From Thermotogota bacterium (GTDB taxonomy: Bacteria; Thermotogota; Thermotogae; UBA12178): a stretch of 64,000 bases of DNA. The notes beneath the pieces are model-generated. The model did no database searches and was not told the DNA's origin. It saw only the letters and a list, made by a program, of their open reading frames with translations. Position numbers and translations under genes: made by a program. The first letter of the stretch is position 1, and every line of letters begins with the position of its first letter. The DNA is taken from assembly GCA_003538775.1 (NCBI GenBank), contig DPRG01000105.1, forward strand, positions 12,476-76,475, written 5' to 3'. Positions 27,633 through 45,510 of the stretch are shown in pieces.

Positions 27633-28121
27633 ATGGTCCCAGAACGCTTTGTTAAAGTCATAAAGATGATTCATGGTAAGCTAACGGGCAGTGATATCGT
27701 ATGGGCACTCACAGGCAGCACCAGTTTTGCCATCCAGGGTATTGACGTAGTGCCCAAGGATATCGACATCCAGACAGACAAAGAAGGAGCTTATAGAATA
27801 GAGGAGTTGTTCTCTGAATACGTTGTCGAAAGAGTCAAGTTCAAAGAGAGCGAACTCATTCGATCTCACTTTGGAAAGCTGGTGATCGATGGTATCGATG
27901 TCGAAATCATGGGAGACATCCAGAAGAAAGTGGACGGTAATTGGGAACCGCCTGTGAATCTACCGCAGTATATCCTTTTCGTTGATTTTCAAGGCCTTAA
28001 ACTGCCCGTACTTTCACTGGAATACGAAGCAGAGGCTTACAGGAAGCTGCATAGGTATGACAGAGCCAGGGTGCTGAGTGAATTCACTTCACGCTCTCAA
28101 CGCACCCAGTTTTCTCATTAA
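27633..28121 (+). CDS. nucleotidyltransferase-fold protein (pol-beta-like)
   Basis: hG[GS]-x10-DhDh signature: ALTGSTSFAIQGIDVVPKDIDIQ; 3' end overlaps the convergent FGGY kinase. Confidence 0.45.
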   Translation: MVPERFVKVIKMIHGKLTGSDIVWALTGSTSFAIQGIDVVPKDIDIQTDKEGAYRIEELFSEYVVERVKFKESELIRSHFGKLVIDGIDVEIMGDIQKKVDGNWEPPVNLPQYILFVDFQGLKLPVLSLEYEAEAYRKLHRYDRARVLSEFTSRSQRTQFSH

Positions 28122-30784: not shown

Positions 30785-30803
30785 CGCAAACGATTGAGTT
30801 CAT
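30785..30803. promoter_or_regulatory. putative LacI-type operator CGCAAACGATTGAGTTCAT upstream of TRAP operon 1
   Basis: 19-nt identity with the site at 33903..33921. Confidence 0.5.
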
Positions 30804-30870
30804 GCTTCTTCGAATGAAAGGATACTATTTTCTATTCTTGGAGGTGGAAGATGAGAGGCGCAAAGCATTC

Positions 30871-31905: not shown

Positions 31906-32056
31906 ACGGTTATTAGAAAAGGGAGGGAGCACTCCCTCCCTTTTAACTTCTTTTGGAATCATTGGCAAGATCCCTCATACACGAGAATGCAGTATGTAAT
32001 CTCCAAACATGATAGAGGAACACTCCATCGTTGGTTTACATCGAGGTGAGCAAAAC

Positions 32057-32527
32057 ATGTTGTCAAAATACGTGAAAGTTGTTGGGGTCTTAACAGGTAT
32101 GTGTCTGTTGTTGATGTTCGTAATAGTGACAGTAGCCGTAATAGCTCGTTACGTGTTTTCTTCTCCCATTTTCTGGGCTGGAGAATTTTCCAGATATCTC
32201 ATGTTTTACATGGTAATGTTAGGCAGTGGTTTGGCAATAAGAGATGACAAACATCCTTCTTTAACGTTCATAATAGAAAGATTTCCGCAGCGCTTGAAGA
32301 GGGTCTGGACCTATGTCGTTTACTTCTCTGTTCTCTTCGTTTCGGTGATAATACTCTGGCAGGGTTTCATAATGATGTCAAAATCTACCTTTTTGAGGAC
32401 TCCAGCGTTGAGAATCCCCTTTTCTTGGGTTTATGCAGGCCTTCCAATAGGAGGTGCCCTAATAAGCCTAGAAGCGGTACTCAAGGTTGCTTATACTTAC
32501 CTTTCCAGCAGGAGGAAAAGCTCATGA
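32057..32527 (+). CDS. TRAP transporter small permease (DctQ family)
   Basis: 4 TM helices, start ATG 32057 after GAGGTGA. Confidence 0.7.
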   Translation: MLSKYVKVVGVLTGMCLLLMFVIVTVAVIARYVFSSPIFWAGEFSRYLMFYMVMLGSGLAIRDDKHPSLTFIIERFPQRLKRVWTYVVYFSVLFVSVIILWQGFIMMSKSTFLRTPALRIPFSWVYAGLPIGGALISLEAVLKVAYTYLSSRRKSS

Positions 32528-33813
32528 ATGAAGGGCTAATTGTTGCTCTGATAACCTTTGGATTCATAATGTTCCTTGGAATTCCTCTGTCCTTTTCGAT
32601 GATCCTGAGTACGCTCATTTACCTCTTAACCAACGGTTTCTCTCTCTTCATCGTACCCCACAAGATATTCACAGGTATTGATACCTTTACGTTGATGGCG
32701 ATCCCGTTCTTCATGCTTGCAGGTGAATTGATGGTCATCTCCGGAGCTGCTGAAAGGATTTTAGAGTTCTCAAACGTTTTGGTTGGACGCTACAGAGGAG
32801 GACTGGCTTACGTCAACATATTGGCGAGCATGCTTTTTGGTGGGTGTTCTGGTTCAGCACTTGCAGACGTTGCAGGGCTTGGCAGACTCGAAATTTCCAT
32901 GATGGAAAAGGGAGGTTATACACGCTCTTTCAGTACTGCACTGACAATAACATCATCTGTCCAAGGCCCTATAATTCCACCCAGTATAATAATGGTCCTG
33001 ATTGGAGCGGCAACTAACACGTCTGTTGGTGCACTCTTATTGGGTGGAGCAATACCAGGAGTTCTGGTGGGATTAGCCCAATCTCTGGTGGTCTTCTTGA
33101 ATAGGAAGAAATTTCCACGATCACCGGTAGAGCTTCCTCTGAGGAAAAAGGTAATTGTCTTACTTTCCGCTTTGCCATTTTTGGCAATGCCCGTCATAAT
33201 CCTTGGAGGTATAATAAGCGGCGTTTTTACTCCCACAGAAGCTTCTGCTATTGCAGTTTTATACGGTTTCATACTGATATTCGTTTATCGAAAAGGAAAG
33301 GTGAATCTGTCGGAACTTGGAGGGTTGTTCAAAAGAGTGGGTATCACAACAGCGACTATTTTGATGTTGTCTGGAGGGTCAAATCTCTTTGGTTGGATGC
33401 TGGCCAATGAAAAGCTACCCCAAACCCTTGCGAATTTCCTTCTTTCCTTCACTGGCGACAAATATGTGTTTTTGATTATCATGAATATATTCCTCTTGCT
33501 GTGGGGAATGTTTATGGACGCTCTGCCAGCCATCTTGATACTCGCTCCCATATTCTTCCCAATAGCAAAACAAATGGGAGTTGATTCGATCCACTTCGGC
33601 GTCGTGATGGGATTCAACCTTGCTATAGGTCTTATCACACCGCCTTATGGCGCTGCGATATTCACAGGTGTGGTAGTCAGTGGACTTCCCATGGAAAAAT
33701 TGGTAAAGGAAATGGTTCCCTTCATTCTCGCTTCTATTGGAATTCTGATACTGGTTACCTATTTCCCAGAAGTAGTTTTGTATATTCCATCCTTGTTCGG
33801 TTTGTTGGACTAA
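32524..33813 (+). CDS. TRAP transporter large permease (DctM family)
   Basis: MNEGLIVALITFGFIMFLGIPL... DctM family; ATGA overlap with dctQ. Confidence 0.85.
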   Translation: MNEGLIVALITFGFIMFLGIPLSFSMILSTLIYLLTNGFSLFIVPHKIFTGIDTFTLMAIPFFMLAGELMVISGAAERILEFSNVLVGRYRGGLAYVNILASMLFGGCSGSALADVAGLGRLEISMMEKGGYTRSFSTALTITSSVQGPIIPPSIIMVLIGAATNTSVGALLLGGAIPGVLVGLAQSLVVFLNRKKFPRSPVELPLRKKVIVLLSALPFLAMPVIILGGIISGVFTPTEASAIAVLYGFILIFVYRKGKVNLSELGGLFKRVGITTATILMLSGGSNLFGWMLANEKLPQTLANFLLSFTGDKYVFLIIMNIFLLLWGMFMDALPAILILAPIFFPIAKQMGVDSIHFGVVMGFNLAIGLITPPYGAAIFTGVVVSGLPMEKLVKEMVPFILASIGILILVTYFPEVVLYIPSLFGLLD

Positions 33814-33902
33814 GCTGAACATACGGTAGTACGGTAATGCAAGGTAGTAGTGAGTGGCGCTTGACAAAAAATACGGTTGGTGGTAATATAATTTTGTTAT
33901 GA

Positions 33903-33921: not shown

Positions 33922-33942
33922 TCCAAAGGGGAGGTGTTCGTC

Positions 33943-34941
33943 ATGAAAAAGTGGGCTGTGGTTTTATCGATTCTATTGTTAGTGAGTATTTTCGCATTTG
34001 CCGAGGTCAAGCCAGACTACGTGCTTCGATTCAACACAGTTGCCGCGCCCACCCAGCCTCAGGTGTTAGCCATGCAAAAGTTTGCGGAAATCGTGGAGGA
34101 GCTCAGCGGTGGCAAGATTAAGGTAGAGGTATACCATTCGGGACAGCTTGGAGATCAAAAGACTGCGCTGCTCGCGGTGATGAGGGGAGACCTTGAAATG
34201 ACCAGTGATGCTGCTCCGTCGTGGTTCGCCGATCTCGCAGCAATGCCAGAATTCGGTGTCTTCGAGGCTGCATACGTTTTCAAGGACTTGGATCATCTCT
34301 ATAGGGTTATGACCAGTAAGATGGTGCAGGAACTCTTCGATAAGATGGCAGCCAAGACAGGCTTGAGGGTGCTCGATATCTGGTACCTGGGCACCAGAGA
34401 GCTAAATCTCACTGCGAAAGTAGGCCCTGTAAGAAGACCGGAGGATCTCAAAGGCGTCAAGTTGAGGATGCCTAACAACAAGACCTTCTTGGATATGGGA
34501 AGAGCGCTCGGAGCAACGCCAACTCCCATGGGTTTCGGCGAAGTCTACCTCGCTCTCAAGACGGGGACTGTGGACGGTCAGGACAATCCACTTCCAACTG
34601 ACTTGGCAGCCAAGTTTGTTGAGGTGACTAAGTACATCGTTCTCACAGACCACCAGATTGGCATGCTGTGCCCTGTGATCAATGAAAAACTCTGGCAGAG
34701 TATGCCTGAAGAGTATAAAGTTTATATCAAAAAGGCCATGGAAGTAGCGCGATATTACATGAACGAAATGGTATTGGAGCAGGAAGCCAAGTTGCTCAAG
34801 TTATTCAAAGAGAAATACGGAATGGAGATCATCGTTCCCGACAAAGAAGCTTTCATGAAACACGCTCGTGAATACTACAGTCAGCCTGAGTTTGACAAGC
34901 TCTGGGGTAAAGGCATGTACGAAAAGATTCAAAACATGTGA
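33943..34941 (+). CDS. TRAP transporter substrate-binding protein (DctP family), second system
   Basis: MKKWAVVLSILLLVSIFAFA signal peptide; ATG 33943 after GGAGGTG. Confidence 0.8.
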   Translation: MKKWAVVLSILLLVSIFAFAEVKPDYVLRFNTVAAPTQPQVLAMQKFAEIVEELSGGKIKVEVYHSGQLGDQKTALLAVMRGDLEMTSDAAPSWFADLAAMPEFGVFEAAYVFKDLDHLYRVMTSKMVQELFDKMAAKTGLRVLDIWYLGTRELNLTAKVGPVRRPEDLKGVKLRMPNNKTFLDMGRALGATPTPMGFGEVYLALKTGTVDGQDNPLPTDLAAKFVEVTKYIVLTDHQIGMLCPVINEKLWQSMPEEYKVYIKKAMEVARYYMNEMVLEQEAKLLKLFKEKYGMEIIVPDKEAFMKHAREYYSQPEFDKLWGKGMYEKIQNM

Positions 34942-35021
34942 TGAGGAATGGAAAATGAGAAACGAACGAGGTGGGGCTTCCCCACCTCGTTTTAAATTCT
35001 ATGACCGGAGTGAGTGTGAAA

Positions 35022-35540
35022 ATGAAGGTGGCAAAGAAAATTCTGAAGACAGTTGTCGATATTGTAGAACAACACCTTTCGTCGATATTTTTGTTCTCTG
35101 TTTTCATCAGTATGTTTTTCCAGGTGTGGCTGAGGTACATCTTTAAGATGCCGTCACCGGAGCTTTACGAGATCACTCTGTATTCCTTCGCCTGGGCTGT
35201 TTTGCTCGGCGCTGCTTATGCCCACAGATATCGTGATCATATACGGTTTAACATCATTTATGAGAAACTGCCCAGAAAGGCACAACTGGTGATCGACATA
35301 GTTTTTGACGCTTTGCTAACGATTCTCTTTACGATTTCCCTTCGCCCAGTATTCCGACAGGCATTTTGGTACCATATGATCCGTTCCGAAGTGCTGGGAA
35401 TTCCCTGGACTTATCTCGTGTTCTGTTTGCCTCTTTTCATTATCCTTGTGATAGGTCACAATGTGGTCTTTCTTTACTACGAAATCCGCGAGTTGTTTAC
35501 GGGTAAACCCATGAATCTGGAGGAGAAACCGTGGCTTTGA
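35022..35540 (+). CDS. TRAP transporter small permease (DctQ family), second system
   Basis: start ATG 35022 after GGAGTGAGTG. Confidence 0.7.
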   Translation: MKVAKKILKTVVDIVEQHLSSIFLFSVFISMFFQVWLRYIFKMPSPELYEITLYSFAWAVLLGAAYAHRYRDHIRFNIIYEKLPRKAQLVIDIVFDALLTILFTISLRPVFRQAFWYHMIRSEVLGIPWTYLVFCLPLFIILVIGHNVVFLYYEIRELFTGKPMNLEEKPWL

Positions 35541-36826
35541 CAGTCTTTTTCCTCACCTTTGGTTTGATGTTCGTTTTGGGTTATCCAATTGTTTTTGCGA
35601 TGATAGCAGGTGGAATTCTGTACTTTCTGGTTACAGGCCTTGATCTTTCAAACCTCATAGATATCCTCGTGATTCACTTTTCGGCACAGGATGTGCTGAT
35701 CGCCGTCCCGCTGTTTATATTCACTGCCAACGTCATGAACGATTGTGATATCACCCACAAACTCTTCGACTTCATCCAAAAGGCCATGGGGAGAATCCGT
35801 GGAGGCCTCGGCTATGCGAACATAGTAGCCAGTATCATCTTTGCCGGGATGAGTGGCTCGGAGATCGCCGATGTTTCGGGTATAGGAAACATCGAAATAA
35901 AAGCGATGATGGATGCGGGGTATGATGGAAAATTCGCATGTGCTGTGACCGCTGCGTCGGCTACCATAGGACCCATCATTCCACCAAGCATTCCCATGGT
36001 CATATACTCCATGCTCACAGGGGCTTCGCTTGGATATCTCTTTCTTGCAGGTTTTTTGCCAGGACTTCTTTTGGGAATATTTGAAATGATCATGGTCTAC
36101 ATTCTCTCACGCGTGCGTAACTATCCTCGAGGGGAAAAAGTACCCTTTCCGATGCTGCTCAGAGCCTTTTGGAGTTCACTGCCTGCGCTTTTGGCACCTG
36201 CGATTCTGTTGATAGGTATTTACGGTGGTGTTTTCACTGCAACAGAAGCCGCTGCTGTAGTGGCAGGATATGTGATAATCATCAGTTTTTTGATTTATAG
36301 AAGCCTTGGATGGAAGAAGCTTTACAGGATATTGATGAAGAGTGCTGAATCTGTAGGATACATCAGCTTCATAGTGGCGTCGGCTTATATCGTAACCTAC
36401 GTGGTGGCCAGAGAACATGTGGCCCAACAGATTACAGAAGCGTTCATAGAATCTGGACTGCTTTCGAACAAGATTCTTCTCCTTTTGAGTATAAATTTAC
36501 TCTACTTCATTTTGGGCATGTTCATCGACGTTTCCATCATACAGCTTGTGGTGATCCCCATGGTATTTCCTTTGGTACAGGCGGCGGGGATCGACCCCGT
36601 GCATTTTGGAATCATCACCACGGTTAATTTGATGATGGCCTTAGACACCCCGCCTTATGGTCAGACCGGTTACATCACCAGCGCTTTGAGTGGTACGCCA
36701 CTTCGGGAGGTTTTCAAAGAAATGTTGAAGTACTGGATACCGACAGAGGTCGCTGCTTTGATGGTAATAACCTTCTGGCCGGACTTCGTGCTCTTCTTAC
36801 CTCATTTGTTTGGCTACTCTGGCTGA
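35531..36826 (+). CDS. TRAP transporter large permease (DctM family), second system
   Basis: DctM family; GTG start after GGAGGAG. Confidence 0.85.
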   Translation: MALTVFFLTFGLMFVLGYPIVFAMIAGGILYFLVTGLDLSNLIDILVIHFSAQDVLIAVPLFIFTANVMNDCDITHKLFDFIQKAMGRIRGGLGYANIVASIIFAGMSGSEIADVSGIGNIEIKAMMDAGYDGKFACAVTAASATIGPIIPPSIPMVIYSMLTGASLGYLFLAGFLPGLLLGIFEMIMVYILSRVRNYPRGEKVPFPMLLRAFWSSLPALLAPAILLIGIYGGVFTATEAAAVVAGYVIIISFLIYRSLGWKKLYRILMKSAESVGYISFIVASAYIVTYVVAREHVAQQITEAFIESGLLSNKILLLLSINLLYFILGMFIDVSIIQLVVIPMVFPLVQAAGIDPVHFGIITTVNLMMALDTPPYGQTGYITSALSGTPLREVFKEMLKYWIPTEVAALMVITFWPDFVLFLPHLFGYSG

Positions 36827-36847
36827 TAGTGGAAAGGAGGAAAAAGT

Positions 36848-38275
36848 ATGAAAAAGTACAGAGTTGGTGTTATTACCTTCTCCGACGGCCGTGAATTCGT
36901 ACACAGGGACTTGCTGGAAACCAACAAGAAGTTCGAAGATAGGTTGGTGAAAACTCTTGAAGATACCGGAGAAATAGAGGTGGTGAGGGCATCTGAAATT
37001 GTGTGGAAGCCATCGCTGGCTAAGAAAGCAGGCAAAGAGCTCATGAAAGCGGAAGTGGAAGTGACCGTATTCAATTACGCCATATGGTGCTGGCCTCATC
37101 TCTCGGTATTAGCTTCGCTCTTCGCACCGGGGCCGTTTCTACTCTACGGTCAAGTCAATCCCAGATATCCCGGCATGGTGGGACTTTTGGCAGCATCTGG
37201 AGCTTTAGAACAGGTGGGAATTTTCCATGAAAAGATCTGGGGCGAGCCCGAATCAGATGAAGTGAGAGAGAAGATCCTCACATTCGTGAGAGCTGCTGCA
37301 GCTACGAGCAGGTTGAAGGGAGAAAGATATGGGATGTTCGGCGGGCGCCCTATGGGTATGTACACTGCCGCAGCCAACGGAGATCAGTGGATGAAAGAGT
37401 TCGGAATTGATGTGGAGCAGATAGATCAGTATGAGCTGGTTCTCAGGGCTGAAAAGGTACCGAAGGAAAAGAAAGAAAGGGCACGTAAATGGCTTGAAGA
37501 GCTGGCTACAGTTGCTTACGATGGGAAACTCCTAACTCCCGAAATACTGGAGCGTCAGATAGCGCTTTACTACGCTGCGCGGGAGATCATCGAAGAGTAC
37601 GAACTTGACTTCGTTGGTTTCAAAGGCCAGCCAGAGATGACCAACAACTACGCTACCATGGACGTAGTGGAAGCTTTTTTGAACGACCCATATGATTGGG
37701 ATGGGCCGAAAGAACCTGTCGTCGCAGCCACAGAGACGGATATGGACGGAGCTTTAACAATGGAGATTTTCAAACACATAGCAAGGCAGCCAGTGCTCTT
37801 TGCCGATGTGCGCCACTATTTTGAAAGAGAGAACCTGCTCGATTTGTGTAACAGTGGAACACACGCCACCTATTTCGCCGCTCGTTCCTATGATCCAAGG
37901 GAAAACCTGAAGCACGTAACGTTTTACCCAGAAACGTTCTACTTCCCCGCAGGTGGCGCGGCGGTGAAACACGTAGCAGCGCCGGGCGAAGTCACATTGG
38001 CGAGGCTTACCAGAAAAAACGGAAAATACCACATGACCATCGTTCCCGCAGAATTCGTGCGTTTGTCAAAAGAAGAAGAGGAAAGGCTTATGAAAGAAGT
38101 ACAGGAGGAATGGCCTCATGCTTACGCAAGGCTCAAAACAGACATGGAGACATTCTTGAAGCATTATCCCTGTAACCACATCCACGGAGTTTACGGCAAC
38201 TATGTGAACGAACTCATCACCTTCTGCAAGATCAAAGGAATCAATTACACACTTCTCGATAAGGAGGGAATCTGA
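36848..38275 (+). CDS. L-fucose/L-arabinose isomerase-family protein (putative sugar isomerase)
   Basis: 475 aa, resemblance to COG2407 fucose-isomerase-like proteins; tentative assignment. Confidence 0.45.
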   Translation: MKKYRVGVITFSDGREFVHRDLLETNKKFEDRLVKTLEDTGEIEVVRASEIVWKPSLAKKAGKELMKAEVEVTVFNYAIWCWPHLSVLASLFAPGPFLLYGQVNPRYPGMVGLLAASGALEQVGIFHEKIWGEPESDEVREKILTFVRAAAATSRLKGERYGMFGGRPMGMYTAAANGDQWMKEFGIDVEQIDQYELVLRAEKVPKEKKERARKWLEELATVAYDGKLLTPEILERQIALYYAAREIIEEYELDFVGFKGQPEMTNNYATMDVVEAFLNDPYDWDGPKEPVVAATETDMDGALTMEIFKHIARQPVLFADVRHYFERENLLDLCNSGTHATYFAARSYDPRENLKHVTFYPETFYFPAGGAAVKHVAAPGEVTLARLTRKNGKYHMTIVPAEFVRLSKEEEERLMKEVQEEWPHAYARLKTDMETFLKHYPCNHIHGVYGNYVNELITFCKIKGINYTLLDKEGI

Positions 38276-39196
38276 ATGAAGATGGATGTTGTCGGTAAGT
38301 TCGGTCGAGTTCTTCTTCCATTGATCACGGTTTTCAAAGAGGACCAATCGGTGGACTACGCCATGACAAGAAAAGTGGCCAGATTCGTCGTCGACAAGGG
38401 ATACTGTGACTCTGTCATCGTGAGCGGCACCACAGGCGAATTCTATGTTATGAGCAAAGAAGAACGCATAAAGCTCTTTGAAGAGATCAAGGACGAATTG
38501 GGAGATTCCGTGCCTTTAATAGCTGGTACCGGAGCGGCCTTCGTTGGAGAAGCTATTGAACTCACTAAGGCTGCTGAAAGATTAGGTTACGACGCCGTCA
38601 TGGTTGTTGTACCCTACTACTGCCATCCTGAACAGGAAGGCATTTATCAACACTTCAAGAGAGTTGCAAAGAGTACTTCGCTGCCCGTTATGATCTACAA
38701 TATACCTCTTTTTGTTGGTGTGAATATTTCTCCGGATACGGTTGCGCGTTTGGCTGAGATAGACAACATCGTGGCAGTCAAGGACGAGGCAGGACTCCAT
38801 CCGTTGCAGACCACGGCGTTCATAAAAAAGACCAGAGGGCAACTCGCGGTGTATTCCGGAGACGATACCATGGTTCTCCAGGTATTGACACAGGGTGGTG
38901 TCGGTGTTGTCAGCGGAGGTGCCCACGTGGTGGGAGACATTATAAAAAAGATGATCGACGACTTCCTTTCAGGGAGAAATGACGACGCTACGGAAAAATT
39001 CCATACCTTGATGGATCTATATTCGGCCTTCCATGGGGTAGATGGGAAAAGAACAAATCCGACACCCTTGGTGAAAGCGGCTTTCGAAATGATTTCCGAT
39101 CTGCCAACTTCTCTTCCGAGGCTTCCACTGACGCCAGCCACTGAAGAAGAAAAGGAACGGTTGAAAGCGGCACTGAAACGCGTCGGGAAGCTTTGA
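38276..39196 (+). CDS. DapA/NAL-family lyase (dihydrodipicolinate synthase-like aldolase/dehydratase)
   Basis: VSGTTGEF, MIYNIP (Tyr), IVAVKDEAG (Schiff-base Lys) motifs. Confidence 0.75.
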   Translation: MKMDVVGKFGRVLLPLITVFKEDQSVDYAMTRKVARFVVDKGYCDSVIVSGTTGEFYVMSKEERIKLFEEIKDELGDSVPLIAGTGAAFVGEAIELTKAAERLGYDAVMVVVPYYCHPEQEGIYQHFKRVAKSTSLPVMIYNIPLFVGVNISPDTVARLAEIDNIVAVKDEAGLHPLQTTAFIKKTRGQLAVYSGDDTMVLQVLTQGGVGVVSGGAHVVGDIIKKMIDDFLSGRNDDATEKFHTLMDLYSAFHGVDGKRTNPTPLVKAAFEMISDLPTSLPRLPLTPATEEEKERLKAALKRVGKL

Positions 39197-39212
39197 GGAG
39201 GCAGACCAAGGG

Positions 39213-40172
39213 ATGCTCACGAGGGAAGAAGTCAAAGAGATTTACGTTCTGGTGCCCACACCCTTGGATTCAAAAGGACGGTTCGATGAGCACACTTTCC
39301 GAGAAAACATCAGAAAACTTTGCAAAAGCGGTGTGCACGGGATAGCCACTACGGGGACTGTTGGTGAATTTTACACACTATCCTGGGAAGATCACAAGCG
39401 GTTGATCGATGCATTGGTGGACGAAGCTTCCAAGTGTCGGCAAAGACTTGCGACTATTGTTGGATGCAGTGCTCTCAACACCAGAGAAACCATAGAAAAG
39501 ACATCCTATGCTGAAGAACGAGGTGTAGATGCGGTTATGAACGTGGTGCCTTTTTATCAAAAGCTGTTGGAATGGGAAGTTGTGGAATTTTGGAGTGATC
39601 TTGCGAAAGCTTGTCCAAATATTGGGATCTTCATCTACAACAATCCCATCACTGGACGGATTCTCCACACTCGAGAACTCTACAAAAAACTCGCAAAGTA
39701 TCCCAACATCCTTGGAAGCAAAGAAGTGGTAACCAACTTCGATCACTGGCTATCCCTGCGAGATACAGGTCTTGTTCATATGCACATAGACATTCTCTTC
39801 GTTCCCACCATGATGTGGGGAGCAAAAGGATGCTTTTCTGGTGGAGCTTGCATCCGTCCTGATTTGTTGCTCAAAACGTACGAGTTATGCAAGCAAGGTG
39901 AATGGGAAAAAGCGAAGGAATTGCAGTATCTCATAAACGATCTCATGGCTTGCCATGATCGCCATGATTATCCCATAACTCCAGGGGGTTCAGCTGCAGT
40001 TTATAAGGCCTTTGTTGAAGCGGGCGGTTTTTTGAGGTGTGGCGATCCAGGAAAACCGTATCTTCCAGTTGGAGAAAGTGTGAAGTTGAAGATCAAGAAG
40101 GAGTTGGAGAAGGTTCAAAAAAGAATCGATGAGGCATTATCCCGCTTGAGTGATTCTCAGGAGGTGAAATAA
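39213..40172 (+). CDS. DapA/NAL-family lyase, second paralog
   Basis: TTGTVGEF, IYNNP, ILGSKEV (Lys) motifs. Confidence 0.75.
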   Translation: MLTREEVKEIYVLVPTPLDSKGRFDEHTFRENIRKLCKSGVHGIATTGTVGEFYTLSWEDHKRLIDALVDEASKCRQRLATIVGCSALNTRETIEKTSYAEERGVDAVMNVVPFYQKLLEWEVVEFWSDLAKACPNIGIFIYNNPITGRILHTRELYKKLAKYPNILGSKEVVTNFDHWLSLRDTGLVHMHIDILFVPTMMWGAKGCFSGGACIRPDLLLKTYELCKQGEWEKAKELQYLINDLMACHDRHDYPITPGGSAAVYKAFVEAGGFLRCGDPGKPYLPVGESVKLKIKKELEKVQKRIDEALSRLSDSQEVK

Positions 40173-40177
40173 CGTTC

Positions 40178-41290
40178 ATGGAACTCAGAGAACTTTCAGA
40201 CGCGTATTTAAAAGCGGTAAATTTTCAGAATCCTCCGTGGATTCCAGGTAAGGTGGCATTTCTTCCAGCAACATGGAAAACGTATGGTAAGGAGTTGGAA
40301 AAGATTGTACTGACGTACAGAAAGCTCTTTCCAGAGTATCAACCAGGAGATTACAAACGTCTCGCTAAACCCCCACATCCTAGATACATGCCTGGAAAGT
40401 TTACTGACGCGTGGGGATGTGTCTGGAGCAACGATTACGAGGGACTTGCTGGGGTTGTAACGGAGAGCCCGCTCAAAAACTGGGGAAAACTCGAGAAGTT
40501 TTCGCCACCTGATCCCGAGGAGATGGACGACTACGGCGATCCCGTGGATTGGGAACATCGAAAAAGACAGGTGGAACGCATACACGAGCTTGGGGGGCTT
40601 GCGTTCGGCTATTTCATACACGGTTTTTTCTTCATGCGTCTCTTCTATCTTCGAGGATTTGAAGAGCTGATGCTCGATATGGCGATGGGTGAAGAAAAGG
40701 TTTGGACGCTCATAAAAATGGTCAGAGAATACAATCTTAAACTGGCAGAACTATGGCTGAAAACAGGGATCGATGTTATCTGGTTTGGTGATGATCTGGG
40801 AACCCAGGAATCGTTGATGATAAGCCCCAAAATGTTTCGTGAATACATTAAACCCTTCTACAAGGAGATTTTTGGATTGTTCAAAGATGCGGGAGTTTAC
40901 GTGTACTTTCACAGCGACGGTCGGATTGTCGATATTTTGGAAGATTTGATCGAATGCGGAGCCAGCATCGTCAATCCACAAATCGGGCCAAACACAGTGG
41001 AAGAACTTGAAAGATTCAAAGGACGTGTCTGTATGGACGTGGACCTTGACAGGCAGCTCTTTTCTACAGGTACACCAGATCAGATAAGAAAACATATCCA
41101 TACCGTCATAGAAACTTTGAAACAGGAAGAGGGAGGGCTCATGGCTTACGCAGAGTGCAGTCCAGAGGTACCTTTGGAAAATATCAAGGCTGTCTGTGCC
41201 ACCATGGCAGAACTTTGCGGTCCAACGGCGATGAAAGACTTTGTGCAGCTGCAGACAAGTCACATATCCTCAAAGCATGGAGGTGACTAA
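40178..41290 (+). CDS. uroporphyrinogen decarboxylase (URO-D) family protein, MtaA/CmuA-like methylcobamide methyltransferase candidate
   Basis: URO-D fold length and composition; not HemE-like at N-terminus; lacks the HxC zinc motif of methanogen MtaA (has HSDG). Confidence 0.65.
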   Translation: MELRELSDAYLKAVNFQNPPWIPGKVAFLPATWKTYGKELEKIVLTYRKLFPEYQPGDYKRLAKPPHPRYMPGKFTDAWGCVWSNDYEGLAGVVTESPLKNWGKLEKFSPPDPEEMDDYGDPVDWEHRKRQVERIHELGGLAFGYFIHGFFFMRLFYLRGFEELMLDMAMGEEKVWTLIKMVREYNLKLAELWLKTGIDVIWFGDDLGTQESLMISPKMFREYIKPFYKEIFGLFKDAGVYVYFHSDGRIVDILEDLIECGASIVNPQIGPNTVEELERFKGRVCMDVDLDRQLFSTGTPDQIRKHIHTVIETLKQEEGGLMAYAECSPEVPLENIKAVCATMAELCGPTAMKDFVQLQTSHISSKHGGD

Positions 41291-41291
41291 A

Positions 41292-41927
41292 GTGGAAACA
41301 CTAAGGAAATTACGAGATTCACTCATAGAAGGTGAAGTGGAAGAGGTGAAGCGTTACACGCGGCAAGCGTTAGATGAAGGTATACCCGCAAAAACAATAT
41401 TAGATCAAGGGTTGGTCGCGGGTATGGATGTAGTAGGCGTTAAGTTCAGGGAAGGTGAATACTTCTTGCCAGAAGTCTTGCTATGTGCGAAGGCGATGCA
41501 CGCTGGGCTTGATATACTCAAGCCACTTCTTGCTGGAGAAGGCGAGAAAAGCGTCGGTACCATTGTGCTGGGAACCGTCAAAGGTGATCTCCACGATATA
41601 GGAAAGCGCATAGTCAAGGCTATGTTAGAAGGTGCTGGATATGAGGTAATTGACATAGGTGTGGACGTGGATGCAGAAAAGTTTGTGGAAAGTGTCAAGA
41701 AATATAAACCGCTCGTACTGGGGATGTCGGCTCTTTTGACAACCACGATGCGTTATATGAAGACAGTAATAGATGCCTTGCAAGATGAAGGCATCAGAGA
41801 TAAGGTCAAAATTATCGTGGGCGGAGCACCTGTCAACGAGGAGTTTGCGAAGCTTATAGGAGCCGACGGTTACGCACCCAATGCCAGCGAAGCTGTAGAT
41901 CTTGTAAGGCGTTTGATAGCAGCATAG
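41292..41927 (+). CDS. corrinoid (cobalamin B12-binding) protein, MtaC/MtmC-like
   Basis: N-terminal four-helix cap plus Rossmann B12-binding domain with DxHxxG motif (GDLHDIGK) and GMSALLTTT; GTG 41292 after GGAGGTGA. Confidence 0.8.
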   Translation: METLRKLRDSLIEGEVEEVKRYTRQALDEGIPAKTILDQGLVAGMDVVGVKFREGEYFLPEVLLCAKAMHAGLDILKPLLAGEGEKSVGTIVLGTVKGDLHDIGKRIVKAMLEGAGYEVIDIGVDVDAEKFVESVKKYKPLVLGMSALLTTTMRYMKTVIDALQDEGIRDKVKIIVGGAPVNEEFAKLIGADGYAPNASEAVDLVRRLIAA

Positions 41928-41938
41928 GAGGCTTGAAA

Positions 41939-43306
41939 ATGGGAGAAATGGCGTACAGTAGTGCTCGGGAGATGATCTTTGGATTTGCCAAAAAGCCGGT
42001 GAACGTGGGAAACGAGCTTATCATCGGAAATGGGAGAGTGATTCCAGAGGTCAATTTCACCCTTCCATCTGTGAATCTGGATGAAGAGAATGTTCCAGAA
42101 ATCAGAGAAAGATTCAAAGATATTGCGAACCGAATCATGAAAAGATGTGTGGAGTTACAACAGGAGGAAGTGGTAATTGAGTTCGAGCATTTGTTTGATA
42201 TGACCGAAAGACCGGATTTTGGTGCACAGCTCACGAAGGATCTCAAAGAAGTCATTGAGAAGTACTATCAATCACACGGCATCAAAGCTGCTCTGAGAGT
42301 TACCATAGCTGATATTCGTGACAGAGTCCGACCGCCCAGGATGAGAAGTGGCAGAGAGATTGAGACGATGCTACGTTCATTCGAGCTCTGCGCTGATGCG
42401 GGCGCCGATATACTGTCCATCGAAAGTACCGGCGGAAAAGAGATTTCCGATAACGCTTTGATGATGGGGGACGTGGAAGGAGTGTTGTTCGCACTCGGTG
42501 TTTTGGGACCAAGAGATATGGAGTTCTTGTGGAACGAGATAGTTTCGATAGCTCATCGTTATGACGCTGTCCCAGGAGGAGATACGGCATGCGGTTTTGC
42601 CAACACTGCCATGCAATTGGCACATCAGGGGTTGTTACCGAAGGTGCTGGCCGCCGTTGTGCGTCTTATGAGCGCTCCGCGGTCTTTGGTGGCAGTGGAA
42701 GTGGGAGCAGTTGGCCCGCTCAAAGACTGTGGGTATGAGAACCCGGTAATCAAGGCTATCACAGGGGTTCCCATTAGCATGGAAGGTAAGACAAGCGCGT
42801 GCGCTCATTCGTCGCCCTTAGGAAACATCGCGGCTGCGGTGTGCGATCTTTGGAGCAACGAGTCTGTCCAGGATGTAAAACTTCTAAGCGGCAATACACC
42901 CGAAGTCTTCACCGAGATGCTCATCTACGACTGCAGGCTGATGAACACAGCCATAAAAGCGGGCAAGGCCGAATCTTTGCGAGACCTTATGGTGGATTCT
43001 GATCGTTTTCTCGATCCACAGGCCCTGGTTCTCGATCCAGAAATCATGTATGAAGCGGCTCATGTGGTCGTCAGAGTGGGGGAAGATAAATACAAACAAA
43101 CAGTTGCCGTTTCAAGATATGCCTATGAAGTTGTGAAAGAAGCTGAAACGACCGGCAAGGTAAAACTACGCGATGTTGAAAAGAAATGGCTTGAGAAAGT
43201 AGGAAAAATCCTGGAACACCTACCTGAAGAAGAGGAAGAGTTCTATGCTAAGGTAAAGGCAAGATATGAAGGACATTTTGTCCCCGAAGAGTACGGACTG
43301 AAGTGA
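41939..43306 (+). CDS. MtaB-family methanol:corrinoid methyltransferase-like protein (MT1)
   Basis: N-term MAYSSAREMIFGFAKKPV...IPEVNF and internal SAPRSLVAVEVGAVGPLKDCGYEN, MEGKTSACAHS motifs characteristic of MtaB TIM-barrel zinc enzymes. Confidence 0.7.
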   Translation: MGEMAYSSAREMIFGFAKKPVNVGNELIIGNGRVIPEVNFTLPSVNLDEENVPEIRERFKDIANRIMKRCVELQQEEVVIEFEHLFDMTERPDFGAQLTKDLKEVIEKYYQSHGIKAALRVTIADIRDRVRPPRMRSGREIETMLRSFELCADAGADILSIESTGGKEISDNALMMGDVEGVLFALGVLGPRDMEFLWNEIVSIAHRYDAVPGGDTACGFANTAMQLAHQGLLPKVLAAVVRLMSAPRSLVAVEVGAVGPLKDCGYENPVIKAITGVPISMEGKTSACAHSSPLGNIAAAVCDLWSNESVQDVKLLSGNTPEVFTEMLIYDCRLMNTAIKAGKAESLRDLMVDSDRFLDPQALVLDPEIMYEAAHVVVRVGEDKYKQTVAVSRYAYEVVKEAETTGKVKLRDVEKKWLEKVGKILEHLPEEEEEFYAKVKARYEGHFVPEEYGLK

Positions 43307-43328
43307 TAGGTCAATCGAGGTGCTGAGC

Positions 43329-45140
43329 TTGAATAAGATCAAGGTAAAGATCGCTGAAACGAATAGAGAGGTCTTTTGTGATAAGAATTCAAACCTTTTA
43401 CACTGTCTTCAGAATGCGGGATTTGCTCTACCTGGTGAGTGTGGAGGCCATGGAGTTTGTGGAAAATGTAAGGTTAAGGTATTATCTCCCCAGTCTCTAA
43501 CACCACCCAGCGACGCCGAAAAACGTTTATTAACACAAGAAGTGCTTAAAAGCGGTGTTCGTCTTGCTTGTCAGGTAAGATTGATTCGAGATACCAAAAT
43601 CGCTGTGTCCACCTCTGTAAAAATCGATAATACCATTCGCTTGACAGGGGAAACCCAACGCTGTGAACAGGATCCAACGTTGATCGCGAAGGCGTTTGTC
43701 ATATCTCCTGAATCTTTTGGAACTTCAAAAAGCATGCTTGAAGATTTAGAAAACACTTTGAAGGCTCGAGCCGGATCTCTGCTTGTGATAAAAACTCTTC
43801 CCCTACTTTTGGGGAAAAACGAACATCATGGCAAAGCGATAATTTACAACGACGAAATCCTGGATTTGTTACCAGCAGATTCGTCTCGTAGGCTACTCGG
43901 CCTCGCTATAGATCTTGGAACAACGACTATCGTTGGGTATTTGGACAACCTCGAAAATGGTGAGAACCTCGCGGCTTCAGTGCGGTTGAACCCGCAGCGT
44001 GCTTGGGGAGCCGATATCATTTCACGTATCTCGATCGTGATGGAAAAAACCAAACATCTGGGAAAAATGCAAAAGGCAGTTGTAAACGCCATCAATGAAA
44101 TGGCCAAAGAGTTGTGTTACAAAGCCAACGTCTCTTGTAAGGATATCTATCGCATAGTCGTGGTTGGTAATCCCACGATGGTACACATTTTGGCTGGTGT
44201 AAACCCATCCAGCATTGCAATGGCGCCATTTACCCCAGTGTTTTTGAGATATTTAGAATTTCCTGCCAAAGAACTCGGTATTTCACAGGTAAACCCTGCT
44301 TGCAAAGTTTCACTCATGCCACATGCGTCATCATACATTGGATCGGATATACTTGCGGGGCTTATCAGCTCGGAATTCTTAGAAGAAACGACAGCGCTTT
44401 ATATAGATCTTGGCACAAATGGTGAAATCGTTCTCAAAGCCGACAAACAGATTTTCGCTACTTCTACAGCAGCAGGCCCTGCTTTCGAAGGTGCGACCAT
44501 AAAGCGAGGATCTGTAGCCTGGCCAGGAGCGGTAGATCATGTCTGGATTGAGAACGACAAGCTAGGATATTCTGTGATAGGAGAACGTGAAGCCGAAACC
44601 ATTTGCGGTTCTGGTATTGTGGACTTGATCGCTATAGCTCTTAAATTAGGACTGATAGATCCCCAGGGGAAAATCGCTTCATCTCCACAAGACGAATTTG
44701 AAGGGTTCGTATGCGAAGTTGATGGGGAACGAGCTATTAGATTGTCGGAGAAGGTGTATTTAACGCAGTCTGATATTCGACAGATACAGTTAGCGAAAGC
44801 AGCCATAAGCGCTGGCGCAAGTATTCTTGTTAAAGAAAGTGGTGTTTCATTGGATGCACTCAAGATATACATTACTGGCACTTTTGGTGCCAGGCTAAAC
44901 ATCAAAAATGCGTTCAAAATAGGCTTGTTGCCCTTAGTTTCGGAGAAAAATGTTGTTCAACTTGGAAACGCTGCGGGTCTGGGTGCAAGGATGATACTTC
45001 ATAGTCGAACTCGCGAGAAACAAATCAACGAGCTCAGATCGTGTATAACAATCCTGGAACTGTCGACCGATCCTCGTTTTTCAGATGCGTTTATCGAGCA
45101 TATGCCCTTTCCCAGCGAGGACATTCAGAATAGTTTGTAA
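43329..45140 (+). CDS. RamA/RACo-type reductive activator of corrinoid proteins (N-terminal 2Fe-2S ferredoxin + ASKHA ATPase domain)
   Basis: CGGHGVCGKCKV...C plant-type ferredoxin motif followed by DUF4445/ASKHA domain (LAIDLGTTT, DLGTNGE); ~600 aa; likely TTG 43329 (track GTG 43320). Confidence 0.75.
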   Translation: MNKIKVKIAETNREVFCDKNSNLLHCLQNAGFALPGECGGHGVCGKCKVKVLSPQSLTPPSDAEKRLLTQEVLKSGVRLACQVRLIRDTKIAVSTSVKIDNTIRLTGETQRCEQDPTLIAKAFVISPESFGTSKSMLEDLENTLKARAGSLLVIKTLPLLLGKNEHHGKAIIYNDEILDLLPADSSRRLLGLAIDLGTTTIVGYLDNLENGENLAASVRLNPQRAWGADIISRISIVMEKTKHLGKMQKAVVNAINEMAKELCYKANVSCKDIYRIVVVGNPTMVHILAGVNPSSIAMAPFTPVFLRYLEFPAKELGISQVNPACKVSLMPHASSYIGSDILAGLISSEFLEETTALYIDLGTNGEIVLKADKQIFATSTAAGPAFEGATIKRGSVAWPGAVDHVWIENDKLGYSVIGEREAETICGSGIVDLIAIALKLGLIDPQGKIASSPQDEFEGFVCEVDGERAIRLSEKVYLTQSDIRQIQLAKAAISAGASILVKESGVSLDALKIYITGTFGARLNIKNAFKIGLLPLVSEKNVVQLGNAAGLGARMILHSRTREKQINELRSCITILELSTDPRFSDAFIEHMPFPSEDIQNSL

Positions 45141-45394: not shown

Positions 45395-45510
45395 ATTTTC
45401 ACCTCCAGGTTTTCAGATGTTCATTTCAATGATAACACTGGTTTTCAAAAGTGTTTTGAACCACTTTTCGTTTTTCAACGTCTTACATTTTGGCAGGGAG
45501 GTGGATAAAA

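Follow-up and report, generated by a model that had tools for sequence, protein, structure and literature searches.

In the methanol methyltransferase system of Methanosarcina (MtaABC; MtaB/MtaC structure 2I2X, MtaA structure 4AY7), mtaC and mtaB are adjacent, MtaB is a TIM barrel with Glu/Cys/Cys zinc ligands, the corrinoid protein MtaC carries a DxHxxG motif, the second methyltransferase (MT2), MtaA, has a URO-D fold with an H-x-C...C thiol site, and reductive activation is of the RamA type. In acetogens (Moorella thermoacetica, Acetobacterium woodii, Eubacterium callanderi), MtaABC is a methanol:THF methyltransferase: the operon combines a bacterial MtaB, a ~22-kDa MtaC and a RACE-type activase, and its MtaA is a 29.7-kDa THF-methylating MT2 that feeds the Wood-Ljungdahl pathway (PMC13391211). 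From its size, we infer that the acetogen MtaA is not a URO-D-family protein (~40 kDa). Aryl methyl ether O-demethylases (acetogens, Desulfitobacterium; MtvABC, Odm/Vdm) consist of four components (MT1, corrinoid protein, MT2 and activase), cleave phenyl methyl ethers through Co(I) attack on the O-methyl ether, pass the methyl group to THF through a separate MT2, and have a non-Cys zinc site in MT1. Their ether-cleaving MT1 is a UroD-superfamily protein (PMC10418091). Type 1 mlp gene clusters, found mostly in Firmicutes, contain no MtaB and encode Mlps ~30% identical to CoM methyltransferases, with proposed methyl-sulfur or methyl-selenium substrates (Kountz & Balskus, PMC10418091).

The locus analysed here lies in the window, the whole 64,000-nucleotide stretch of DNA, on a contig from an uncultured Thermotogota MAG. 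The host is a heat-loving, uncultured, fermenting bacterium; the surrounding buk, ptb, VOR and TRAP genes, seen by translation and Pfam, bear out the fermenter-type Thermotogota host proposed in an earlier, sequence-only reading, and the window contains no methanogenesis genes. Like Methanosarcina MtaABC, the locus has adjacent mtaC and mtaB genes, a DxHxxG carrier, a URO-D-fold protein in the place of the second methyltransferase, and a reductive activase; it differs in that its URO-D partner lacks the H-x-C...C thiol site, its corrinoid protein is of a short MtbC/MtgC-like type, its activase is of a bacterial Fer2-RACo type, and the module lies inside a sugar operon.

A ten-gene operon with the methyltransferase genes at its distal end

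The features of the region are as follows.

28089..29576, minus strand: FGGY-family sugar kinase, divergently transcribed (Pfam FGGY_N 194 bits, FGGY_C 92 bits)
29573..30595, minus strand: LacI-family regulator (Pfam LacI and Peripla_BP_1/3/4)
30802..33813, plus strand: first TRAP transporter (DctP 30802-31905, 238 bits; DctQ 32009-32527, called as a DctQ-sized ORF; DctM 32425/32521-33813, 363 bits)
33861..33889, plus strand: promoter-like site (TTGACA-17-TAATAT with TG) that precedes the second dctP by 45 nt
33934..36826, plus strand: second TRAP transporter (DctP 33934-34941, 254 bits; DctQ 34971-35540, 78 bits; DctM 35531-36826, 317 bits)
36848..38275, plus strand: short-form L-fucose/D-arabinose isomerase, 475 aa (Pfam Fucose_iso_N1/N2/C)
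38276..39196, plus strand: DHDPS/NAL-family class I aldolase 1 (Pfam DHDPS 267 bits)
39213..40172, plus strand: DHDPS/NAL-family class I aldolase 2, divergent (Pfam DHDPS 131 bits)
40178..41290, plus strand: URO-D-superfamily protein "URO-D-X", 370 aa (Pfam URO-D PF01208)
41277..41927, plus strand: corrinoid methyl-carrier of MtaC/MtbC type (B12-binding PF02310 105 bits, B12-binding_2 PF02607 79 bits)
41939..43306, plus strand: MtaB-family methanol:corrinoid methyltransferase (PF12176)
43320..45140, plus strand: ATP-dependent reductive activase of RACo/RamA type (Fer2 39 bits, Raco_middle 182 bits, RACo_C_ter 240 bits)
45125-45394, minus strand: convergent cupin gene, which closes the operon

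The ORF list and Pfam place four consecutive, tightly packed plus-strand genes at 40178-45140, as the sequence-only reading had described, and every junction among them is an overlap or a gap of 1-13 nt with a GGAGG-type ribosome-binding site. That reading missed their context: they are no free-standing methylotrophy module but close a ten-gene operon, with the order TRAP transporter, isomerase, two DHDPS-family aldolases, and module. The URO-D gene starts 5 nt past the upstream DHDPS gene, its ribosome-binding site (GGAGGTG) lies within the end of that gene, and no convincing terminator-like or promoter-like site was found between the sugar genes and the module. From this layout, the module is predicted to be co-transcribed with the TRAP transporter, the fucose-type isomerase and the two DHDPS-family genes, and co-transcription with sugar genes favours sugar demethylation over methanol methylotrophy. 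The promoter-like site at 33861..33889 is a candidate, by consensus match alone, for the start of the operon; the number of promoter-like sites across the region is not above shuffled expectation. A strong hairpin (31917-31944) lies 3' of the first TRAP binding-protein gene.

The isomerase is 79% identical to a protein of Kosmotoga sp. DU53, encoded in a locus with an ABC transporter, an FGGY kinase, a class II aldolase, DeoR and FucU, and 60% identical to a protein of Thermotoga sp. 38H-to whose gene adjoins a GH29 fucosidase. The Thermotoga locus likewise carries an FGGY kinase, and the divergently transcribed kinase of the window is a candidate ketose kinase (fuculose/ribulose-type) belonging to the locus. 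Since neither the Kosmotoga nor the Thermotoga isomerase locus contains methyltransferase genes, the module resembles an add-on for a modified sugar. Aldolase 1 scores above the dapA model cut-off (246 vs 206 bits), and operon context leads us to guess that it may be a 2-keto-3-deoxy-acid aldolase; the nearest PDB structures of aldolase 2 are DHDPS, N-acetylneuraminate lyase and KDG aldolase. The binding protein of the second TRAP transporter is nearest to 4PF6 and SiaP-type sialic-acid binders (E 8e-53 to 1e-43). TRAP transporters usually carry carboxylates, whereas the isomerase points to a neutral deoxyhexose, so that transporter and isomerase suggest different substrate classes.

MtaB, corrinoid protein and activase

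Profile searches for the MtaB, B12-binding, URO-D and RACo families all gave matches, with profile and structure E-values far beyond chance for the predicted family identities. For MtaB (ORF opening at TTG 41933; ATG 41939 preceded by AGGAGG), PF12176 scores 582 bits (E 1.2e-174, profile positions 4-460 of 460) and the M. barkeri MtaB structure 2I2X matches with E 2.8e-107; the window and Methanosarcina enzymes (41% identity) have in common the TIM barrel and the zinc ligands. The motifs quoted for MtaB in the sequence-only reading were located at 42671-42742 (SAPRSLVAVEVGAVGPLKDCGYEN) and 42779-42811 (MEGKTSACAHS), and the ligands E164, C220 and C266 (C269 in M. barkeri) fall in columns at least 97% conserved among 73 aligned homologues. 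MtaB nevertheless scores 502 bits on the methanogen equivalog model, under its 720 cut-off, and is placed in a bacterial clade marked by 34 substitutions specific to it, some of which flank Cys220.

The corrinoid protein probably starts at GTG 41292, with the ribosome-binding site GGAGGTGA 5 nt upstream (alternative, ATG 41277; further start, 41241), and scores 217.3 bits on the cognate corrinoid-protein model TIGR02370, above the cut-off of 215.3. Re-inspection located the predicted DxHxxG motif, D-L-H-D-I-G, at nt 41586-41603 and showed S-A-L and GG motifs after it. The activase (alternative start TTG 43329) scores 379 bits on the AcsV model and has the [2Fe-2S] pattern C41-x5-C47-x2-C50...C84, in agreement with the 2Fe-2S and ASKHA architecture proposed for it. 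These matches give MtaB, the corrinoid protein and the activase firm identities, and the ligands for zinc, cobalt and the FeS cluster are all predicted to be intact.

The URO-D-family protein and its candidate role

The sequence-only reading held that the four genes supply every component of a methanol/methyl-ether pathway, with MtaB as the methanol MT1 and the URO-D protein as a divergent MT2 to THF, a thiol or another nucleophile. The architecture is that of canonical MtaABC, conservation of MtaB is high and extends to its zinc ligands, and the AF2 model of URO-D-X (pLDDT 92.6) has the MT2 MtaA as its top predicted fold match. MtaA (4AY7) is also the sole PDB sequence relative of URO-D-X (E 4e-4 alone, 4e-5 with a family profile). 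However, PF01208 matches URO-D-X with 60 bits over residues 156-345 only (the C-terminal half), and the MtaA/CmuA model gives 50.5 bits, far under its cut-off of 235.4, a score that also sets URO-D-X apart from type 1 Mlps. URO-D-X lacks the Cys ligands required for thiol activation: as had been noted, the H-x-C zinc site is absent, with H-S-D in its place, and alignment of the subfamily shows that H245-x-D247-G248 and E326 are invariant and a distal Cys is not conserved. The acetogen THF-dependent MT2 is below URO-D-family size, and neither the window operon nor its syntenic copies contain a gene of that 29.7-kDa type (the acetogen system being compared by description). No folate-, CoM- or homocysteine-type MT2, and no other methyl sink, is visible in the scan of the operon and its flanks, which covered about 28-47 kb of the window, and CoM is, to our knowledge, not known from Thermotogota. 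There is, moreover, no obvious reason for methanol assimilation inside a sugar operon. Pseudothermotoga lettingae, a relative in culture, breaks down methanol through an unidentified route and reportedly lacks methanol methyltransferase genes (PMC7808614), and a scan of one genome per species confined MtaB to two uncultured Thermotogota. We conclude that URO-D-X is not recognisable from its sequence as an MtaA-type MT2 and that methanol consumption through it is very improbable; what stands of the sequence-only reading is the identity of MtaB, corrinoid protein and activase, and what falls is the complete pathway.

URO-D-X belongs to a large, unnamed subfamily found mostly in carbohydrate loci. 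Its relatives (42-53% identity) have as neighbours GH38, GH106, sugar ABC transporters, LacI, GFO/IDH/MocA and isomerase genes; in most cases the recovered DNA encodes no corrinoid protein, and tandem URO-D paralogues are frequent. HemE, the founding member of the superfamily, is a cofactor-free decarboxylase. URO-D-X could thus be a cofactor-independent sugar enzyme (decarboxylase, isomerase or eliminase) beside a separate MtaC-MtaB-RACo methanol unit with a partner elsewhere; the predicted fold has HemE structures as second-best matches, and B12-domain fusions number 0 among the 150 best representatives. Against this, all characterised non-HemE superfamily members known to us are corrinoid-dependent methyltransferases (see also PMC10418091), and among URO-D proteins encoded next to bacterial MtaB genes the H-x-D type is the most frequent. 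URO-D-X is also translationally coupled to mtaC, and its relatives in the L091 group and in L118, two further lineages, precede an adjoining MtaC 51-55% identical to that of the window. We regard the cofactor-independent role as decidedly unlikely. A corrinoid protein lies near subfamily members in only about three independent lineages (recovered flanks, a few hundred bases to 10 kb), and the corrinoid dependence of the subfamily is accordingly putative; for URO-D-X itself we infer such dependence, and propose it as a candidate ether-cleaving sugar:corrinoid methyltransferase (MT1), likened by description to OdmB/VdmB. The locus differs from aryl O-demethylases in its carbohydrate context, in having MtaB as second methyltransferase, and in the absence of a THF enzyme.

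Comparable loci and the fate of the methyl group

The synteny of the window is kept in at least two further lineages, with two of those contigs from Thermotogota MAGs. The order TRAP-isomerase-DHDPS-DHDPS-UROD-MtaC-MtaB-RACo recurs in L001/L086 (MtaB 88% identical), is present in part in the truncated L002, and is kept in the more distant L081 (MtaB 61%), where an IclR regulator follows. An uncultured Dictyoglomota contig (L019) carries a tight operon of ABC transporter, MtaC, RACo, MtaB (59%), GH67 alpha-glucuronidase and a URO-D-family protein with H-N-D and no Cys. GH67 enzymes release 4-O-methyl-glucuronic acid, and L019 is an independent joining of the corrinoid module with a sugar-active gene. 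Glycoside hydrolases are not enriched around MtaB homologues in general.

In four to five loci of Verrucomicrobiota and Armatimonadota, a homocysteine S-methyltransferase (PF02574) lies beside MtaB, MtaC and URO-D genes, so that methanol consumption is the simpler reading there. Such loci suggest for the window a scheme in which URO-D-X (methylated sugar) and MtaB (methanol) both load a shared corrinoid protein and an MT2 outside the window (a MetH-like homocysteine methyltransferase or methyl-THF-forming enzyme, for example) unloads it toward methionine/SAM or oxidation. Some of these homocysteine S-methyltransferase loci (L020, L031), with up to three URO-D paralogues, MtaB and one MtaC, resemble many donors with one acceptor, and acetogen MT1 enzymes can share CoP and MT2 (PMC13391211). 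No homocysteine-type or methyl-THF-forming MT2, however, is found among the scanned window genes or in the conserved gene order of L001, L081 and L019; stoichiometric catabolic demethylation would outstrip biosynthetic methionine demand; and the scheme leaves unexplained a methanol MT1 co-transcribed with sugar genes in two unrelated fermenter phyla. We consider the two-donor scheme unlikely, though conceivable.

A proposed anaerobic sugar O-demethylase

Family identities, conserved catalytic residues, operon structure, synteny and comparative contexts are established; the class of substrate and, most of all, the direction in which MtaB works are inferred. In our best reading, the ten-gene operon serves to break down an O-methylated sugar or sugar acid, and its four distal genes carry out the demethylation; an O-methyl 6-deoxyhexose (2-O-methyl-L-fucose, for instance) and an O-methyl sugar acid are candidate substrates. 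We tentatively favour, at somewhat less than even confidence, an anaerobic O-demethylase in which URO-D-X cleaves the ether, MtaC carries the methyl group, and MtaB runs in reverse to methanol. Driven by ATP, the activase would pass a low-potential electron to the corrinoid protein and so bring its Co(II) to Co(I); URO-D-X would bind the methylated sugar at its His/Asp/Glu site, in place of the thiol-activating His/Cys/Cys zinc site of MtaA, and enable Co(I) to remove the methyl group from its ether oxygen, as in aryl O-demethylases; and the fucose-type isomerase, the kinase and the aldolases encoded in the locus could then act on the demethylated sugar. MtaB, docked on the same corrinoid protein, would run its near-equilibrium reaction in reverse, transferring methyl to water, releasing methanol and regenerating Co(I). 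The net reaction would be hydrolysis of a sugar methyl ether via a corrinoid relay, and discharge as methanol would make a folate, CoM, thiol or Wood-Ljungdahl sink unnecessary. We know of no physiological demonstration of the methanol-forming direction for MtaB. Its reaction is reported to be reversible in vitro in earlier work cited by PMC13488299.

The proposal and the P450 carbohydrate demethylases address a common physiological problem through unrelated protein families. The P450 route is oxygen-dependent, yields formaldehyde, and is closed to strict anaerobes. Methylated sugars block catabolism until demethylated, according to a study of marine aerobes that use a cytochrome P450 on 6-O-methyl-D-galactose (PMC6292453). 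If our reading is true, anaerobic demethylation of methylated sugars with methanol release would be a previously unrecorded route.

Four genes encode a corrinoid methyltransferase module

ORF calls and Pfam searches establish that the four open reading frames of the module lie on the plus strand at the coordinates proposed from the sequence alone, with agreement far beyond chance. The module genes, and the gene that closes the operon behind them, are as follows:

40178-41290, plus strand: URO-D-family protein, 370 aa (PF01208, 60 bits, residues 156-345 only)
41241-41927 (ORF), plus strand: corrinoid protein (B12-binding_2 PF02607, 79 bits; B12-binding PF02310, 105 bits)
41933-43306 (ORF), plus strand: full-length MtaB (PF12176, 582 bits, E 1.2e-174)
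43320-45140, plus strand: RACo-type activase, 606 aa (Fer2 39, Raco_middle 182, RACo_C_ter 240 bits)
45125-45394, minus strand: EutQ-like cupin, 89 aa, convergent with the activase gene and overlapping its last 16 nt

At the junctions between module genes there is either an overlap or a gap of no more than 13 nt. The corrinoid gene probably starts at GTG 41292, preceded by GGAGGTGA (alternative start, ATG 41277), and the likelier start of mtaB is ATG 41939, preceded by AGGAGG. The corrinoid protein carries D-L-H-D-I-G at nt 41586-41603, followed by S-A-L and G-G motifs, and with its two B12-binding domains it is the DxHxxG protein that had been predicted; it just passes the cut-off of TIGR02370, methyltransferase cognate corrinoid protein (217.3 vs. 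215.3 bits), and misses that of the MtaC_Meth equivalog (149 vs. 420 bits). The predicted 2Fe-2S and ASKHA activase is likewise confirmed: its three Pfam domains are accompanied by a C-x5-C-x2-C...C [2Fe-2S] cluster motif and a C-terminal ASKHA ATPase domain, the features of RACo/RACE/RamA-type proteins, and it misses the AcsV exception-level cut-off (379 vs. 800 bits). Proteins identical to the URO-D protein, activase, isomerase and CysRS of the window are found among HCZ06976-HCZ06994, encoded on a 78-kb contig of an uncultured Thermotogota MAG, and the database annotation of both module proteins looked up, the URO-D protein and the activase, is "hypothetical". No cobalamin riboswitch or any other Rfam RNA was found in the whole window.

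MtaB retains the zinc site of the methanol enzyme

The PF12176 match of MtaB far exceeds the cut-off of 25 and spans nearly the whole profile (4-460 of 460), and the structure of M. barkeri MtaB, 2I2X, is matched with E 2.8e-107 (41% identity to M. barkeri MtaB), which upholds the identity first assigned. All three residues that we take to be the M. barkeri zinc ligands, Glu164, Cys220 and Cys269 in the numbering of the 2I2X structure paper, are identical in the alignment to 2I2X, and the surrounding blocks are conserved as well; in an alignment of 73 MtaB homologues the ligands fall among 91 columns that are at least 97% conserved. The methanogen equivalog NF040651 is missed (501.7 bits vs. 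a cut-off of 720). On profile scores, MtaB is a member of the family but no methanogen-type equivalog. In the bacterial clade of this MtaB, 34 clade-conserved positions differ from M. barkeri, including A219, G221 and F222 around Cys220, differences that may mark either lineage or substrate. The simplest inference is that the substrates at the zinc site of MtaB would be methanol/water, whichever way the reaction runs. The MtaB reaction is only slightly exergonic toward methyl-cobalamin, so that low methanol concentration would favour release. PMC13488299 describes the reaction as reversible in vitro.

The closest relatives of the window's MtaB (47-63% identity) are from Armatimonadota, including the cultured Fervidibacter sacchari, Anaerolineae, Dictyoglomota, Verrucomicrobiota, Planctomycetota, Acidobacteriota, Bacteroidota and Bathyarchaeia. 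Within Thermotogota, a scan of one genome per species finds MtaB in only two species, both MAGs. Methanol degradation by Thermotogota was considered as an explanation and rejected, given this distribution and the reported lack of the methyltransferase genes in P. lettingae (PMC7808614). A literature search for mtaB together with Thermotogota returned no relevant paper, most matches being to an unrelated tRNA enzyme, MtaB.

The URO-D protein is no recognisable MtaA

In the sequence-only reading, MtaB was MT1, the methyltransferase that loads the corrinoid protein from the donor, and the URO-D protein was an MtaA-like MT2, which unloads it onto the acceptor. The second assignment is not supported. 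The URO-D protein reaches neither TIGR01463, the MtaA/CmuA methylcobamide:thiol methyltransferases (50.5 vs. 235.4 bits), nor the MtaA equivalog (36.7 vs. 400 bits), and it lacks the H-x-C...C thiol-activating zinc site, with H245-S-D247 in place of H-x-C, an absence that the same reading had correctly noted. Across 27 aligned members of URO-D-X, our name for the unnamed URO-D subfamily that holds this protein, H245-x-D247-G248, E326 and some 45 other residues are invariant, whereas three members have Ile or Ser at distal Cys327, the position that aligns with the distal MtaA zinc ligand. Judged by these scores and residues, the protein is no recognisable MtaA. With His/Asp/Glu where MtaA has His/Cys/Cys, the predicted site speaks against a thiol acceptor and is compatible, by inference, with binding of an oxygen ligand. 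MtaA is nonetheless the only PDB sequence relative (4AY7, E 4e-4; 4e-5 with the family profile), and the AF2 model (pLDDT 92.6) is a URO-D-type (beta/alpha)8 barrel with 4AY8/4AY7 as best PDB fold matches (E 1e-12, TM 0.59-0.68), ahead of HemE structures. The direction first proposed, methanol in and the URO-D protein as MT2, is in our judgement improbable. As for HemE, PF01208 covers only residues 156-345 of the protein (60 bits), sequence searches of the PDB found no HemE even with the URO-D-X family profile, and no haem genes were found among the neighbouring window genes scanned.

For URO-D-X, word-indexed searching gives 1168 matches, and 678 representative clusters fall within E ≤ 1e-30; the members are all single-domain proteins of about 350 aa. 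Relatives at 42-53% identity adjoin GH38 and GH106 glycosidases, sugar ABC transporters, LacI regulators, GFO/IDH/MocA oxidoreductases, xylose-isomerase-like barrels and isomerases, often with a tandem second URO-D paralogue. In such tandem cases among homologous loci on other contigs (L084/L085, L101, L117, L131, L139, L163) the paralogue is of H-C-C-G or H-T/I-D-G type, the setting is a sugar-utilisation locus (with GH38, GH106, ABC sugar permeases or GFO/IDH/MocA), and no corrinoid protein was found in the recovered flanks. Fusions to B12 domains, sought as evidence of corrinoid dependence, were absent from the best 150 representatives. A corrinoid protein lies near URO-D-X in only three independent lineages: the Thermotogota group; the L091-L100 group, with three URO-D paralogues and an MtaC 51% identical to that of the window; and L118, where an MtaC (55% identical) directly follows URO-D-X. 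By these neighbourhoods, the association of URO-D-X with corrinoid proteins is supported by few independent lineages. Only two ties of URO-D-X to O-demethylase MT1 enzymes are established, the fold of the superfamily and the location next to a corrinoid protein. That URO-D-X is no methyltransferase we consider improbable.

Methyltransferase genes at the end of a sugar operon

Ten plus-strand genes occupy 33934-45140 with no convincing terminator- or promoter-like site between them, in the order DctP, DctQ, DctM, fucose-isomerase-family protein (475 aa), two DHDPS/NAL proteins, URO-D protein, MtaC, MtaB and RACo. The URO-D gene starts 5 nt past the stop of the preceding DHDPS-family gene, within which the URO-D ribosome-binding site, GGAGGTG, is located. 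The best promoter-like site, 33861-33889, is just upstream of dctP. The arrangement indicates that the module forms the distal part of an operon for sugar use. The same gene order is found in L001/L086 (MtaB 88%, TRAP 96% identical to those of the window) and in the more distant L081 (TRAP 87%, isomerase 81%, URO-D 65%, MtaB 61%, RACo 36%), where an IclR regulator follows; the incomplete L002 shares the stretch from the first DHDPS gene through MtaB. The L081 activase (L081:7951-9768) is only 36% identical to that at 43320-45140, while transporter and isomerase are 81-87% identical, which suggests that the activase gene was replaced or is evolving much faster.

In Kosmotoga sp. DU53, a protein 79% identical to the isomerase is encoded in a fucose-type locus, together with an ABC transporter, FGGY kinase, class II aldolase, DeoR and FucU; in Thermotoga sp. 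38H-to, the gene for a 60% identical protein comes immediately behind that of a GH29 alpha-L-fucosidase. Methyltransferase genes are absent from both loci, which makes the module look as if it had been added to a fucose-like (6-deoxyhexose/pentose) route. Closest to the TRAP binding protein are 4PF6 and acid-sugar binders of the SiaP type, and the DHDPS proteins resemble DapA, NanA and KDG aldolases; a substrate of sialic-acid/Kdo type is kept as a weak lead only, because the isomerase relatives sit in fucose-type loci.

Another TRAP system lies upstream of the operon, as do a LacI regulator and an FGGY sugar kinase in divergent orientation. In this upstream TRAP system, immediately after its dctP (the first of the window) and before its dctQ/dctM, a strong 12-bp GC-rich hairpin (31917-31944) followed by a T-rich stretch looks like an intra-operon attenuator that may favour excess binding protein. 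Next after the cupin, comes a plus-strand gene (45490-46704) whose secreted product has one DUF4384 domain and three PEGA domains.

Elsewhere in the window, translation identifies two butyrate-kinase-like genes flanking a phosphotransbutyrylase-like gene, then four 2-oxoacid:ferredoxin oxidoreductase-like genes (4133-10553), followed by a Pfam-confirmed Glu/Leu/Phe/Val dehydrogenase (10578-11822); together these look like a branched-chain amino-acid fermentation block. The buk/ptb, oxidoreductase and TRAP genes around the locus agree with the fermenter host first proposed. On the minus strand, 14267-18840 encodes, by translation only, 2-oxoacid dehydrogenase complex-like proteins (E1 alpha, E1 beta, lipoyl-bearing E2) and a lipoate-protein ligase, a putative complex that would be unusual in a strictly fermentative Thermotogota genome.

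MtaB modules in other genomes

A tightly packed plus-strand operon in an uncultured Dictyoglomota (L019:1748-16470, CAZTGC010000004.1), independent of the window lineage, encodes an oligosaccharide ABC transporter (family-5 binding protein, two permeases, two ATPases), MtaC, RACo, MtaB, GH67, a URO-D protein and a transketolase-like protein. Identities to the window are 61% for MtaC, 37% for RACo and 59% for MtaB. The gene for the GH67 alpha-glucuronidase overlaps the MtaB stop, and a GH106-like gene lies downstream of the operon. GH67 enzymes release 4-O-methyl-D-glucuronic acid from xylo-oligosaccharides. By gene content, this operon is a second, independent link of an MtaB module with a methylated-sugar-releasing enzyme. 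Its URO-D protein is of another subfamily (22% identity), with H-N-D and without Cys; H-x-D is the commonest variant among 34 URO-D proteins within 7 kb of bacterial MtaB genes.

In the 71 loci with a called MtaB, neighbours include URO-D-family proteins (26), MtaC (23), AraC (about 10), RACo (8) and homocysteine S-methyltransferase (PF02574; 5), and DUF1638 also occurs; by tblastn, MtaC is present in about 31 and RACo in about 12 of all 80 MtaB loci. General enrichment of glycoside hydrolases around MtaB homologues was not found, the neighbour families being heterogeneous, and for that reason we claim a carbohydrate link only for the Thermotogota and Dictyoglomota operons and URO-D-X. Loci of Fervidibacter-type Armatimonadota (L005, L008-L012, L014, L018, L049), including Ca. 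Fervidibacter sacchari PD1, a species described as an aerobe, have an orphan MtaB (61-63% identical) in a housekeeping setting, flanked on one side by a glutamate-synthase-small-subunit-like gene and on the other by the gene of a ribosome hibernation factor, with no corrinoid protein, URO-D protein or activase within 7 kb. In L020, L031, L063, L077 and L079 (Armatimonadota/Verrucomicrobiota), a stand-alone PF02574 protein accompanies MtaB, MtaC and up to three URO-D paralogues (at least one); these clusters may encode a folate-independent methionine synthase drawing on methanol or other methyl donors.

A proposed route from methylated sugar to methanol

One carrier, one activase and two enzymes that are candidates for the half-reactions make up the cluster. 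The operon and flanking genes scanned yielded no methyltransferase of folate, CoM or homocysteine type, and no pterin-binding (MeTr/MtrH-like) MT2 was found there, among the called genes of L081, or in the family lists of L019 and similar loci. The reading that we favour, tentatively and from genomic data with neighbourhoods defined by a simple ORF caller on MAG contigs, is one of sugar demethylation. URO-D-X would demethylate an O-methylated sugar or sugar acid and load the methyl group onto Co(I)-MtaC, MtaB would transfer it from the corrinoid protein to water, the methyl group leaving as methanol, RACo would repair oxidised Co(II), and the freed sugar would enter the isomerase/kinase/aldolase route. 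Sugar demethylation with methanol release would account for three features: the co-transcription of a methanol enzyme with sugar genes in two fermenter phyla that are not related, a URO-D component that varies next to a conserved MtaB, and the lack of an encoded methyl sink. Its main rival, that URO-D-X and MtaB both load MtaC and an unlinked MT2 (e.g. MetH-like) unloads it, draws on the homocysteine-methyltransferase-containing MtaB clusters elsewhere, which suggest such an unlinked MT2; we regard it as unlikely. Extension of the demethylation reading to anaerobic saccharolytic bacteria at large (Thermotogota, Dictyoglomota, perhaps many others), with a sugar-specific URO-D protein and, in reverse, MtaB, the signature enzyme of methanogens and acetogens that consume methanol, carrying out corrinoid-relayed O-demethylation to methanol, is possible but a shade more doubtful than the reading itself.

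Comparison with published systems shows that the component families are known. The acetogen MtaA is a 29.7-kDa THF enzyme (PMC13391211), which by size we infer to be too small for a URO-D-family protein. The nearest published analogue of a URO-D/corrinoid/RACE cluster without a folate enzyme, the type 1 mlp clusters (PMC10418091), was rejected as the same system, since those clusters lack MtaB and have a URO-D protein of a different clade. The only sugar demethylase found in the literature searched is an aerobic, O2-dependent P450 enzyme (PMC6292453), and no paper in that literature links corrinoids with any methylated-sugar term. The combination of MtaB, an H-x-D URO-D protein, a short corrinoid protein and RACo in a fermenter carbohydrate operon is undescribed in the literature searched.

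The glycans of plants, algae and microbes commonly contain methylated sugars, which block normal catabolism; 4-O-methyl-glucuronate, 2-O-methyl-fucose or -xylose, O-methyl-rhamnose and 6-O-methyl-galactose are examples. Even on conservative readings, the results extend MtaB-type corrinoid methyl transfer to Thermotogota, in uncultured species only on a scan of one genome per species. If the proposed route is true, the module would constitute a cofactor-relayed "methyl ether hydrolase", would fill a gap in anoxic polysaccharide degradation, and would give a first, testable function to a large unnamed URO-D subfamily of 678 representative clusters. It would also make hemicellulose, pectin or algal glycans of anoxic, hot habitats a biological origin of methanol that had gone unrecognised, may partly explain the spread of MtaB homologues through non-methylotrophic heterotrophs, and would suggest a new cross-feeding link, from fermenter methanol to methylotrophic methanogens.
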